NCBI GenBank assembly: GCA_047459655.1
Contig: JAJREF010000001.1
Span: 576,001 to 640,000 of the forward strand
Source: Rhabdochlamydiaceae bacterium
Lineage (GTDB): Bacteria; Chlamydiota; Chlamydiia; Chlamydiales; Rhabdochlamydiaceae
Direction: 5' to 3'
DNA length: 64,000 bases
Shown here: one piece after another, positions 13,243-64,000 of the stretch
Layout: every line of letters begins with the position of its first letter
Position numbering within the stretch: position 1 is the stretch's first letter
Notes under the pieces: generated by a model
The model's input: only the letters and a program-made list of their open reading frames with translations
Database searches by the model: none
Told to the model about the DNA's origin: nothing
Position numbers and translations under genes: made by a program

Positions 13243-13405
13243 GAGACCTCTGCACAACCCTATAAAATCGCTAAAATCGTTCTTTTTCTGCAGATTTTAT
13301 TTTTCATATCTCGCCTACTCCGTAGAGTATGTCTTCGATATAAAATCAAAAATCTGCAAAAAAATATTCGATTTTTTCGCTTCACCAGAGTTATGCAGAG
13401 ATCTC
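13243..13405 (+). mobile_element. MITE-like palindromic element, family B, copy 1 (163 bp)
   Basis: TIR GAGACCTCTGCACAAC...GTTATGCAGAGATCTC; diverged inverted copy at 15040-15202. Confidence 0.8.
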
Positions 13406-13696
13406 TCAAATGTGTCTTTATTTTTTGCAAATGGTATCAGTGCGAATTGAGCTTTTTTCTTGTACGATTTTTATCTGCACAGCGACTTGGAAAGGGGCCC
13501 CGTAACTTCTTTGCGGGGAAGAACGCGCAAGCAGCCGATAGCCGCTACAGCACAGCAAAAATTTCTCCGAACGAGAGAGGACAGTGCTCTGCACGGACTC
13601 TCACGCAGAGAAAAATTTTGGCAAAGCTGTAGTTAGGCGCAGGGGACGCGGGGCGCGTAGTGCCCGACATCTATATTTTCCTCTTATATTCGGTTA

Positions 13697-13732
13697 AAAA
13701 AGATCCAGTTCCTTAAGGAACTGGATCTTTTT
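13697..13732. terminator. intrinsic (bidirectional) terminator downstream of the porin gene
   Basis: Perfect 36-bp palindrome AAAAAGATCCAGTTCCTT|AAGGAACTGGATCTTTTT, 23 bp past the porin stop. Confidence 0.85.
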
Positions 13733-13755
13733 GCTGTGAAGCGAGATAGAGGTCT

Positions 13756-14934
13756 TTAGAAATCCCATCTTCCGGAAATGGTTAAACCATTGAGGTAGAG
13801 ATTTCCGGGGGAAGCATCCACATTAGAGATGTTGTTCATCATCCATGTGATCATGTTTTGATTCCAAAATACTTGGAAATCATAAGTAGCTGTGAAGTCT
13901 AAGAAATACTTCTTATTACCCAAATAACTTCCCCATCCAAAACCCAATTTACCATCTGCATCCCCTCTTAAGTAGTTCTTACTACCAAAGCTAATAGAGT
14001 AAGCAGGAGAAGCGGTAGGCTCTTTGTAACTGAGGGTTGAATAATGTGTATAGATAAGGCTTCCAGAAGCACTTCCAATCAACCTAAAACCTTCTCCTAA
14101 AAGAAAGTTCAGATCAAAACCAAACCGTGGACCAATCCCCCAGGAAGAAGTTTTCCAAGTAGGTTGGGAAGTAGCGCCTAAAGTCGTTTGGCCAGAGATC
14201 TTATATCTCTGCGAAAGCCATTGTGTACGTAGACCAAAGAAAGGATTAACTGTGAGCTTTCTTCCTTGATAGAAAGGTCTGCCCATTTCTACATCTAAAA
14301 TATCGATTCCAAAACTCCAGCGATGATCACTATTTGTAAATACAACACCACCCCCGCCACCACCAATCAACACGAACGGCGTACTAAGGAAAGGGAAACT
14401 CCCTTGGTGTCTATTCAAAGCATGGTGAAACCATGTATAATTTGCAGCCACCACCCAATCATCATTGCGGGTGTTCGCCCCGATACCCACCTTAAAGCCC
14501 GACTTGTATGCATCTTTCATAAACAGCGTATCGTTAAAACTTCCCGCAGGACTGCTGTAAGTAGATCCTATTCTCATTCCATCTTGCTGCACATCCCAAA
14601 GAGTGTAAGCCGCCGTTACAAATATATCACAGCATCCATTCACGTCTATTTCGGCTGGATGGTTGTAGCCCGCAGGAATTTTATCCACTGGCTGCTGAGA
14701 ATTCACAAGCTCTTGATAAGGACCCACATGTCCTTCTGCTACGTAATTATCTTGCAGAGTGTTGTTCACAAGATTACGATACTCATCTGAATTAACTTGC
14801 GCAGCGCAGCTTCCTCCCTCGCAATTACCACTTTTGTTGATTAACTCAACAGATTTTTTAGAAGAATCTCCATAGAGACCCGCTATAAAAAGAGATGCTG
14901 CTGTAAGGGCTACAACCAATGTTTTTTCTTTCAT
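13756..14934 (-). CDS. MOMP-like / Lpg1974-family outer-membrane beta-barrel porin
   Basis: Signal peptide, GFKVGIG, WGIGPRFG, amphipathic beta-strands, C-terminal GLTISGRWDF. Confidence 0.85.
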   Translation of the reverse strand: MKEKTLVVALTAASLFIAGLYGDSSKKSVELINKSGNCEGGSCAAQVNSDEYRNLVNNTLQDNYVAEGHVGPYQELVNSQQPVDKIPAGYNHPAEIDVNGCCDIFVTAAYTLWDVQQDGMRIGSTYSSPAGSFNDTLFMKDAYKSGFKVGIGANTRNDDWVVAANYTWFHHALNRHQGSFPFLSTPFVLIGGGGGGVVFTNSDHRWSFGIDILDVEMGRPFYQGRKLTVNPFFGLRTQWLSQRYKISGQTTLGATSQPTWKTSSWGIGPRFGFDLNFLLGEGFRLIGSASGSLIYTHYSTLSYKEPTASPAYSISFGSKNYLRGDADGKLGFGWGSYLGNKKYFLDFTATYDFQVFWNQNMITWMMNNISNVDASPGNLYLNGLTISGRWDF

Positions 14935-62327: not shown

Positions 62328-62386
62328 AAGACAACCGCAAATGTACTTCCATATTATCTCCAAAAAGCTTATAAAGACAAGCCTAT

Positions 62387-63763
62387 ATGTACCAACCTTT
62401 TCATCGCAAGTACCGCCCCAAGATATTTTCCGCCATTCTTGGTCAAGATAATATCGTGATTACCTTAAAAAATGCACTTAAATTTAATCGCGTAGCTCAT
62501 GCTTATCTCTTTTGCGGGTCTAGGGGGACCGGAAAAACCACTCTTGCTCGTCTATTTGCAAAGGCACTTAACTGCCTCAATCTAACCTCTGACCAAGAGC
62601 CTTGTAACGCCTGCACTTCTTGTGGACAGATGAATGAAGGGCGTTCGTTAGACGTCATAGAAATTGACGGCGCTTCTAATAGAGGGATTGATGACATCCG
62701 TCAAATCAACGAGACAATTGCCTATGCAACTTCTTCTAGTAAATATAAAATTTACATCATTGATGAAGTGCATATGTTAACCAAAGAAGCCTTTAGTGCT
62801 CTTTTAAAAACTCTCGAAGAACCTCCAGAAAACGTAAAATTTTTCTTTGCAACAACCGAACCTCACAAAATTCTGCCTACTATTATTAGTCGGTGCCAAA
62901 GGTTCGATTTAAATCGGATCCCTTCAGATCAAATCTGCAAAAAGCTTAAAACCATAGCCGGTGACCTCAACCTTGCTATCGAAGACGAAGTGTATGAACT
63001 GATTGCCAATGTAGCAGAGGGGGGCTTAAGAGATGCTGAATCTCTCCTTGATCAATTAATGTGTTACAGCGATGGATCTATTACATATGAAAATGTGAGC
63101 AAAATTTTAGGATTGAGCCCTAGAAGTTACTTTTTTAAGCTAGACCAAGCAATCCACGAGCAAAAAAACTCTTTTGCTTTTGAGCTCGCACAAGAGGTTT
63201 TTTCGACAGGAAAGGATCTAATTTGTTTCGTTGACAGCCTCATGGAACATTTTCGCATACACCTGCTTTATAAACTTAAAACCCCTGTCTCCCTGTATCT
63301 CAGCGAAGAAGACCGGAGGTCTTATTTAGCAACCTCTCCTCTGTACACGCAAGATCAATGCCTATCTAACCTCGATTTTCTGATGCAGTGGAGTAAAGAT
63401 TTATCTAGAATTCCCTTCAAAAGAATTACGCTTGAAATGATCCTTCTTCATCTCATTCGCAGCAAAAATAAAATTTCCCTTCCCACCCTTGTCCGTAGGC
63501 TGGAAGAGCTAAGCATGGCAAAGACTCCTATCGAAAAGATCTCTGCAAAAGAAGTAGTTGAACTGCCACAACCAGTAATAGAGCCCCCCGTCGATACAAA
63601 AGAAATAGTTACGCCTATTCCCCATTCCCCCTTGCCACCTCCCGTACCAATTGCAGAACCTCCTCAACAAAAATCTGAAAATATTGTACCCTCTCCCTCA
63701 GGTCGCCATGAAGTCCTTCTTAGGTTTGCGTCGGTCGAGCTAGAAGGGACATTATACCATTAG
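62387..63763 (+). CDS. dnaX: DNA polymerase III subunit gamma/tau
   Basis: RKYRP, GSRGTGKTT, EIDGASNRG, DEVHML and SRCQ motifs. Confidence 0.97.
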   Translation: MYQPFHRKYRPKIFSAILGQDNIVITLKNALKFNRVAHAYLFCGSRGTGKTTLARLFAKALNCLNLTSDQEPCNACTSCGQMNEGRSLDVIEIDGASNRGIDDIRQINETIAYATSSSKYKIYIIDEVHMLTKEAFSALLKTLEEPPENVKFFFATTEPHKILPTIISRCQRFDLNRIPSDQICKKLKTIAGDLNLAIEDEVYELIANVAEGGLRDAESLLDQLMCYSDGSITYENVSKILGLSPRSYFFKLDQAIHEQKNSFAFELAQEVFSTGKDLICFVDSLMEHFRIHLLYKLKTPVSLYLSEEDRRSYLATSPLYTQDQCLSNLDFLMQWSKDLSRIPFKRITLEMILLHLIRSKNKISLPTLVRRLEELSMAKTPIEKISAKEVVELPQPVIEPPVDTKEIVTPIPHSPLPPPVPIAEPPQQKSENIVPSPSGRHEVLLRFASVELEGTLYH

Positions 63764-63869
63764 ATCTCTTGTGTATTAAGGATTCATCGATTTTATAGGT
63801 TATTCTGACCGATTTGCGATTCGAATGGAAAATCGGCTCTAAAGAACCATAAAATCGACGAACCCTTAA
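63762..63869 (+). mobile_element. family D palindromic element, right end interrupted by family A
   Basis: Begins within the dnaX TAG; internal IR TTAAGGATTCATCGATTTTAT / ATAAAATCGACGAACCCTTAA. Confidence 0.75.
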
Positions 63870-64000
63870 GGAGCCTCTGGATAAGTGCTTTGTCGGAGAT
63901 TGCTGATTAATTTTTCGAAGACGACGATTTTGGAAAACGCAGCTAACATGCAGAATGTTAGCGAGTTCGAAAAATCTAGTATTCGCAAAAATTGACAGCA
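63870..64000 (+). mobile_element. family A element (runs off the window end)
   Basis: GGAGCCTCTGGATAAGTGCTTTGTCGGAGATTGCTG... following TTAA. Confidence 0.9.

Follow-up and report, generated by a model that had tools for sequence, protein, structure and literature searches.

In a Rhabdochlamydiaceae genome, we found many short palindromic elements in which a few hairpin cores, at an element length of about 162 bp, carry the ends of insertion sequence (IS) families. We analyzed a window of 64,000 nucleotides (C1:576001-640000 of a 1.61-Mb assembly that has 5 contigs and is 82% complete) and followed its elements through the rest of the assembly and into other genomes. (Coordinates without a contig name are positions in the window.) Each element is probably moved in trans by the transposase that matches its ends. 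And the elements likely spread by swapping ends to match whatever transposase is at hand, not as shrunken remnants of one parent each. What is new here is that one core carries the ends of several IS families. The sequences show that the architecture is modular: cores occur under several ends, ends occur on several cores, the ends are recognizable as those of autonomous IS, the target duplications go with the ends, and the length is nearly constant. The route of the swaps, the reason for the length, and mobility at present are what we infer. [quoted passage not shown] The community is genuine, and it is wider than five families.

Self-comparison and profiles annotate 261 pieces across the genome (30,167 bp), which belong to 13 short palindromic types and to an unrelated repeat, L, that is counted among the 261. 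There are 93 pieces of A, 26 of C, 21 of E, 20 of B, 14 each of P2 and I, 13 of H, 12 each of G and F, 10 each of P1 and D, 4 each of K and J, and 8 of L, so the types that had been noticed in the window (A, B, C, D, and P) are all multicopy. A is near full length at 68 of its 95 BLAST loci. At full length, A, B, C, D, E, F, G, H, J, P1, and P2 have 160–166 bp, while K (94 bp) and I (135 bp) are known only as shorter forms. Deletion forms of the elements have 49–143 bp, and no element contains a transposase gene. Just one of the 261 pieces reaches a coding score; the other 260 are non-coding. It had been claimed that nearly every larger intergenic gap is filled. This holds for the largest gaps in the window, as 6 of 7 gaps of at least 300 bp bear elements, but not for gaps of at least 150 bp (8 of 20). 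Genome-wide, elements lie in 118 of 229 gaps of at least 300 bp and in 168 of 470 of at least 150 bp. The gene context of these gaps is like that of other gaps (76 tandem, 43 divergent, and 22 convergent, versus 380, 205, and 152).

These elements have the features of type II MITEs: they are under 500 bp, have no transposase gene, and have terminal inverted repeats (TIRs) and target duplications, and they are multicopy, with an empty site in relatives. TIRs shared with an autonomous IS were found for A, C, D/F, I, and P, and tentatively for H. The end of A matches, at 17 of 17 nucleotides, the right end of an IS5 element at C3:6644-7825 (NF033581, 295 bits; cut-off 140), which is 7 bp short relative to homologues in three other runs. 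The P2 end matches an IS630 in genome G171 at 14 of 19 nucleotides; that IS630 itself lies within a P-ended MITE. The C end matches IS701 elements at 17 of 17 nucleotides. In 80 of 120 metagenome loci, there are 8 distinct elements of 1136–1187 bp that C ends enclose, and the proteins of the two that were tested are IS701, above the cut-off of NF049921. The F end matches a 916-bp element with HTH_Tnp_4 and DDE_Tnp_4 domains at 15 of 16 nucleotides, and the D end matches it too. The I end matches an 883-bp IS5-family element with DUF4096 and DDE_Tnp_1 at 17 of 17 nucleotides, and the H end matches an IS1182-like element at 15 of 17. So the ends are those of IS630, IS701, and the IS5 family, and probably of an IS1182-like group, and the original prediction's attribution of all of them to the IS5 group fails for P, C, and H. 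(The subgroup names IS5, ISL2, and IS427/IS1031 for the partner elements are presumed from domain content.)

Several other candidate partners were rejected. An IS630 beside a C end (loci L234 and L252) and an IS5 piece beside another (L254) were not counted, as neither is enclosed by paired ends. The window itself contains one IS, at 5334-6798 (+ strand), which belongs to the ISNCY family (NF033594, 352 bits; cut-off 250) and has 10 copies, TG..CA ends, and a duplication of about 15 bp. It was rejected as a partner because its ends and duplication differ from those of all the small elements, in agreement with the earlier statement that the window lacks a cognate transposase. Viral contigs were scanned for three kinds of ends, and the loci that came up (3 for B/E, 14 for D, and 2 for G) had no paired ends. 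BLAST against plasmids found no match to A, to P1, or to the C end, and the one 18-nucleotide match to the E end was judged to be due to chance.

The target duplications track the type of end. They are 4 bp for A (mostly TTAA), 5 bp for B and E, 6–8 bp (T..A) for C, 3 bp (TTA/TAA) for G, J, K, and P, TA for D and F, and 4 bp for H. Among 69 paired copies of A, 40 have an exact 4-bp duplication, which is TTAA in 27. In a per-type tally, the duplication is exact in 32 of 49 A, 9 of 15 C, 4 of 4 E, 4 of 9 B, 6 of 7 G, 3 of 3 J, 3 of 3 K, 3 of 4 P1, 3 of 4 F, and 2 of 2 D copies. Also, the site between dnaX and ybaB, where this genome has a D interrupted by two A elements, is empty in a congener (G002) and in G001 and G006. 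(The rlmN junction is not syntenic in the relatives that we compared.) A was not found in the two genomes of the same genus, and among 40 relatives it was found only in G006. Together, the TIRs, the duplications, the empty site, and the IS5 with A ends support the proposal that these are MITEs that are mobilized in trans.

We compared the interiors of the elements after cutting 22 nucleotides from each end, using a palindrome-preserving null and accepting hits in both directions. This gave 15 pairs of elements with homologous interiors (z up to 28), so the types are not distinct families as had been thought. One core (core 1) is common to C, G, J, P1, P2, F, and K, and a second (core 2) to D, H, and I, while A, B, and E lie outside both groups. 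Similarly, a covariance model (CM) of core 1, run on this genome, detects copies of P1, P2, C, G, J, and F and no A, B, D, E, or H. Each of the six core-1 consensus sequences that were checked has a conserved AAAG box, 38–39 nucleotides from the terminus. By eye, a TTGC-N-AA motif at positions 7–14 is common to several end types. Links between the interiors of A and B and of B and E, which simple shuffles had suggested, were lost under the palindrome-preserving null.

Could each family instead be an internal-deletion derivative of its own IS, with interiors that look alike because AT-rich palindromes converge? This is the textbook origin of MITEs (PMC10969869 and PMC3184786, from excerpts), and the genome does contain a copy of the A-type IS5 that an internal deletion has reduced to 586 bp (C3:54550-55135). 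However, the interiors are no more similar than background to six genomic regions that hold an IS or the remains of one, the homology across end types withstands a null that preserves palindromes, and A and an element from another chlamydial genome (L470) align without gaps beneath different ends. We give this explanation very little credence.

L470 has the core of A and the ends of E (162 bp, z = 10). In other genomes, we also found the core of B with D/F ends (L505, L507, and L497), the core of D (core 2) with F ends (L499), and a J-like core with C ends (L380). For each of these six, p is 0.003, which is the floor of 300 shuffles. Two more cross-combinations (L480 and L367) are weaker, and a third (L465) is not significant. 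C ends also occur on hairpins of 160–164 bp whose cores differ from those in this genome: in four such hairpins from other genomes, core 1 was not found above a CM E-value of 0.026.

Within the window, the host of the P1 element at 20147-20393 is a candidate half-swapped intermediate. Without its insert it has 83 bp and is colinear with an 85-bp short H, yet its first 20 or so bases are of the D type. The original prediction had called this host D, which is right for the left end (D type, IS5 ISL2-like) and not for the right end (H type, IS1182-like). A contig from run X1, which may be the source sample, covers 19409-20207, including the junction of gene, D, and P, with no substitutions and one gap. 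Besides such hybrids, the genome has minimal end-to-end remnants of 20–31 bp, at C5:27888-27918, C1:736643-736662, and C3:88232; among these is a D end joined directly to a C end via the common TTGCGTAA.

Our explanation, which we consider probable, is that a small set of cores carries the terminal 14–19 bp of several IS families, and that each element is likely cut and pasted in trans by the transposase to which its ends belong. Homologous interiors would let elements exchange ends by recombination or template switching, which could yield a hybrid such as 20147-20393. The TTGC-N-AA motif might serve as a seed for the template switches. Copying from arm to arm in a fold-back could then equalize both ends and leave the length unchanged.

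Core 1 is not limited to this genome. When 200 genomes of the order were scanned with P2, 38 gave matches, many of them limited to the interior, and most of the loci fetched from these matches are hairpins of about 161–173 bp with different ends. In GTDB, an exact core pattern matched at least 121 stretches. Of 80 that were fetched, 61 have chlamydial titles, 12 are titled only "bacterium," 6 are titled Verrucomicrobiae, and 1 is titled Acidobacteria; and of the 72 that could be measured (9 matches at contig edges were dropped), 51 span 158–172 bp including flanks. The pattern also occurs on two contigs of one metagenome-assembled genome that is titled Chlamydia trachomatis. For a covariance model, 108 cores were reduced to 65 by removing 43 near-duplicates, and to 64 by also excluding L050, which has an insertion; the remaining cores were then aligned (A1). 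Of the 151 genomes scanned in the phylum, the model matched 45, one of them a congener. It matched none of the 27 in family f35, in which the members that are listed have genomes of 1.0–1.2 Mb. (Genome G116 was left unscored in three scans, the one with P2 among them.)

In these 64 cores, 34 of 41 base pairs vary on both sides, which is above every shuffle and slide control. Certain non-pairs persist: a C.C opposition in 51 of 64 cores, a bulged A in 59, and an apical non-pair in 51, and a G.G is also kept. (In 43 of the 64 rows, part of the motif was predetermined by the pattern search; the 21 rows that came from elsewhere have the same motifs.) Such covariation and such conserved non-pairs might indicate that the core is a structured RNA or a regulatory hairpin that the host retains, and that the IS ends only deliver it. 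Of 141 long copies, 22 lie within 14 nucleotides of a stop codon, and A points the same way as the tandem genes that flank it in 24 cases, versus 12. But this bias is not significant (p = 0.065), and the dnaX-ybaB site is empty in relatives. Searches with Rfam at the gathering score found only tRNAs in the window, and searches by E-value at 14 element loci gave only sub-threshold, generic hairpins, so the check that had been suggested matched no family to the elements. Furthermore, G-T and A-C oppositions are about equally common (49 against 56, p = 0.56), as would be expected if the symmetry is maintained at the level of DNA. There is no excess of G-U on either strand, and an RNA structure formed from one strand was rejected on this ground. 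Among sequencing runs, no RNA data set was listed as a holder, which has no bearing on expression. An RNA or regulatory role is improbable, and the observations fit a symmetry that is maintained in DNA, with motifs under constraint.

Hairpins of single-stranded DNA that are read by proteins are known from repetitive extragenic palindromic (REP) sequences and attC sites. By analogy, the mismatches in the core might be read in single-stranded DNA by an HUH enzyme (of the IS200/RAYT type) or by a host enzyme, so that the DDE-type ends would be secondary. The mismatches and bulges are fixed in position while the rest of the stem covaries freely, and the inner hairpin can face either way with respect to the arms. 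(It is inverted in a minority of copies, namely L085, L094, L117, L029, L037, and L019, which suggests flipping between arms.) However, HUH transposition makes no target duplications, and here the duplications vary with the end type as described above. We consider this idea very unlikely.

The elements are also stacked. The original prediction listed five stacks, and all of them are at the positions that it gave. In the first (15040-15582), which is not nested, a B with a 5-bp TCCTA duplication (15040-15202), a decayed full-length C with core 1 and IS701-type ends (15257-15411; CM R1, 60 bits), and a 162-bp A with IS5-type ends (15421-15582, – strand), which adjoins the right flank of C, lie side by side. 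In the second, P1 (20163-20323; 161 bp, core 1, IS630-type ends, CM 107 bits) does lie within a D-type left end, with TTA on either side, in the hybrid host discussed above, which is followed by a decayed B-like remnant (20409-20453; 28 bits). The third had been read as A-A-D at 22332-22605. It does contain a full A (22332-22493, + strand), a second, truncated A, head-to-tail and 98.8% identical to its neighbor (22498-22583, + strand), and what reads from the sequence as a lone, decayed D-type end (22586-22605). The first A, however, interrupts a type that had gone unnoticed: it splits an F, one half of which is at 22256-22331, at a TTAA in the central loop. In the fourth stack, an A (50764-50925, + strand) lies in the left duplication of a 49-bp C with an internal deletion (50929-50977), as had been claimed, with one expected T absent; the TTAA target of this A includes the stop codon of an ankyrin-repeat open reading frame (50008-50763). 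In the fifth, an A lies in the right end of a D at a TTAA, again as claimed. The left part of this D, which has core 2, begins at the stop codon of dnaX (63763-63869), and the A (63870-64000 in the window, + strand) extends to 64031, just past the window edge, where a second head-to-tail A and the end of D follow.

Genome-wide, 80 insertion events of A have an intact end, and 17 of these touch another annotated type, versus 5.4 expected (about threefold enrichment, p = 2e-5) from target-weighted non-coding sites, all treated as equally tolerant. If possible clones are collapsed, it is 14 of 77 (p = 6e-4). So nesting does exceed the expectation from target frequency. But there is no simple order from old to young, as nesting is reciprocal: A is found inside D, E, and F, and in turn hosts D, F, and P2; D also hosts E, J, and P1; and E hosts B.

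Stacking could reflect survival in safe sites alone, with no target preference and no movement of composites. In favor of this, nearly all of the pieces (260 of 261) are non-coding, and the MITEs of Cardinium are known to disrupt other mobile elements (PMC9769881, from excerpts). On the other hand, 6 of the 10 A copies at ATAA/TTAT sites are at the same position in the end of E, which accounts for 0.9% of such sites, and three of these have a variant that is carried by only 4 A copies, which suggests that the E[A] composite was copied as a unit. Insertion of A at that position restores 15 of the 17 terminal bases of the host. Also, all nine A-A junctions are head-to-tail, and in A-A identity all nine neighbor pairs rank above the 67th percentile (five of them above the 96th), which points to local duplication. 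Survival alone therefore seems to us rather unlikely. Under our proposal of swapped ends and trans mobilization, stacks would form because other elements, at the inner edge of their ends, offer short AT-rich targets. The duplication would then rebuild most of the host's end, and the composite might remain mobile. Tolerated insertion into existing junk and local tandem duplication of A would also contribute.

Several observations weigh against our proposal or limit it. The null for nesting treats all non-coding sites alike and thus does not separate targeting from survival. The cores of A, B, and E show no detectable link to cores 1 or 2, which means that a single ancestor does not account for the common length. 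The evidence for the swap mechanism consists of one clean hybrid and four less clear mixed-end pieces. In the per-type tally, exact duplications were found for only 2 of 10 H copies, and for the two partner elements of H the best model is IS1182 at 87 and 120 bits, against a cut-off of 270. For the ends of B, E, G, J, and K, we found no autonomous partner. Finally, the assembly, which is 82% complete, yielded no transposase of the IS630, IS701, or ISL2 type: PF13751 and PF13613 have no match in it, and the IS630 and IS701 models gave only cross-hits to ISNCY and IS4-type elements. With these transposases not found and the only cognate IS5 lacking 7 bp, present activity is unproven.

The window has other elements as well. 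A B of 163 bp with GAGACC ends, of the 5-bp duplication type, comes right after a stop codon (13243-13405), and an A with a decayed left end is at 16572-16734 (+ strand). Besides the short C of the fourth stack, there is another at 53150-53198, and a full-length C (53973-54134; 162 bp, core 1, IS701-type ends, CM 73 bits) is flanked by convergent NUDIX and rlmN genes. An isolated D-type end (45274-45292) and an I-like end (60121-60137) lie at the 3' ends of genes and are below the threshold for annotation. Repeat L is represented at 13465-13690. It is GC-rich and about 230 bp long; the genome holds five fragments of it and three copies that are near full length, and it has no clear TIRs and no convincing match in Rfam. 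Two B elements flank a gene for an outer-membrane protein of the Legionella_OMP family (PF05150; 13756-14934). Before the third stack, with its F[A-A], and two tRNAs, a single-copy sequence (22157-22234, – strand) resembles domains V–VI of group II introns, with scores for RF00029 (20.8 bits) and RF04357 (22.4 bits) that are both under the gathering score. A Clp ATPase gene (16913-20138) is broken into four open reading frames. With about 1150 same-strand frame switches in the assembly, it is not safe to interpret broken reading frames either as pseudogenes or as errors; contigs from run X1 match two stretches of the Clp gene without differences, so its breaks may be real or may be shared errors.

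Elsewhere in the genome, one copy of the ISNCY element (C1:701901-703395) is inserted in an F end and has duplicated that end. A second multicopy IS (C1:225541-227022 and six more copies; about 1485 bp, with CTTGTC ends, a 9-bp duplication, and DDE_Tnp_1) has no small element with its ends that we could see. A cluster of mobile DNA at C3:3062-9649 contains the IS with the 9-bp duplication, the A-type IS5, a B inside an E end, ISNCY, decayed IS1182/IS5-like genes, and a B-like end at C3:4824.

How do these elements compare to known repeats? In their short, non-coding, intergenic form, with long stem-loops and duplications, they resemble type II MITEs such as Correia/NEMIS, RUP, ERIC, Nezha, and QMITE2, and in size they resemble YPAL/RU-2 (about 168 bp) and bcr1 (about 155 bp), as these are described in excerpts of reviews. 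According to excerpts of two reviews (PMC10969869 and PMC3184786), type II MITEs have only TIRs in common with one parent IS, and the cores of different MITEs are dissimilar, with one core per parent. In contrast, here one core has several IS ends, one end is on several cores, and the length is nearly constant. The elements share terminal nucleotides and duplication patterns with autonomous IS5 (three types), IS630, IS701, and IS1182-like elements, but they have no open reading frame and no interior homology to the IS regions compared. MITECca01/02 of Cardinium cOegib, which derive from IS982, are likewise high-copy and intergenic in an intracellular symbiont and disrupt mobile elements, but they have a single parent with traceable stages of deletion, and excerpts of that paper (PMC9769881) describe neither a shared core nor reciprocal nesting. 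REP or GTAG-CGTC repeats are hairpins of 20–40 bp with an unpaired GTAG or CGTC foot and no duplication (PMC3733652, from excerpts), whereas the elements here are about 162 bp long and have both TIRs and duplications.

The Rickettsia palindromic elements (RPEs) have termini of the GACCTCTT type, which may be similar to those of the elements here, and modules that are common to RPE families. RPE-1 to RPE-10, as described in excerpts of reviews, are also many palindromic families (about 105–150 bp) in an obligate intracellular bacterium, and they are characterized by in-frame insertion in genes. The likeness to RPEs in the original prediction does not extend to this hallmark, as 1 of 261 pieces scores as coding; this difference is one of insertion pattern, not of sequence comparison. 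The string "chlamyd" is absent from a review of MITEs (PMC10969869), and no shared-core system appears in the excerpts of the Cardinium MITE paper, of chlamydial genome papers, or of a Thiomargarita paper. We found no description of such a system in the literature that we searched, which did not extend to subscription papers, ISfinder, or supplements.

MITEs are usually regarded as decayed insertion sequences, with one parent each. A broader and more tentative reading of our results is that environmental chlamydiae contain modular selfish DNA whose hairpin chassis, of a fixed length of about 162 bp and with conserved motifs that proteins would read, outlives any one transposase and repeatedly gains unrelated IS ends, so that the chassis, and not the IS, would be the unit of descent. 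The length and the conserved mismatches would then point to a shared step, so far unknown, that IS630, IS701, three IS5 types, and IS1182-like transposases could all use; it might be cruciform-assisted synapsis or involve a host factor. These elements are an unannotated class of repeats that makes up about 2% of this genome, and core 1 is in about 30% of the sampled genomes of the phylum. If true, a core that changes transposase family at a fixed length and with fixed motifs would be a second origin of non-autonomous elements in bacteria, and it would explain how such elements survive while IS families are lost from their genomes and acquired again.

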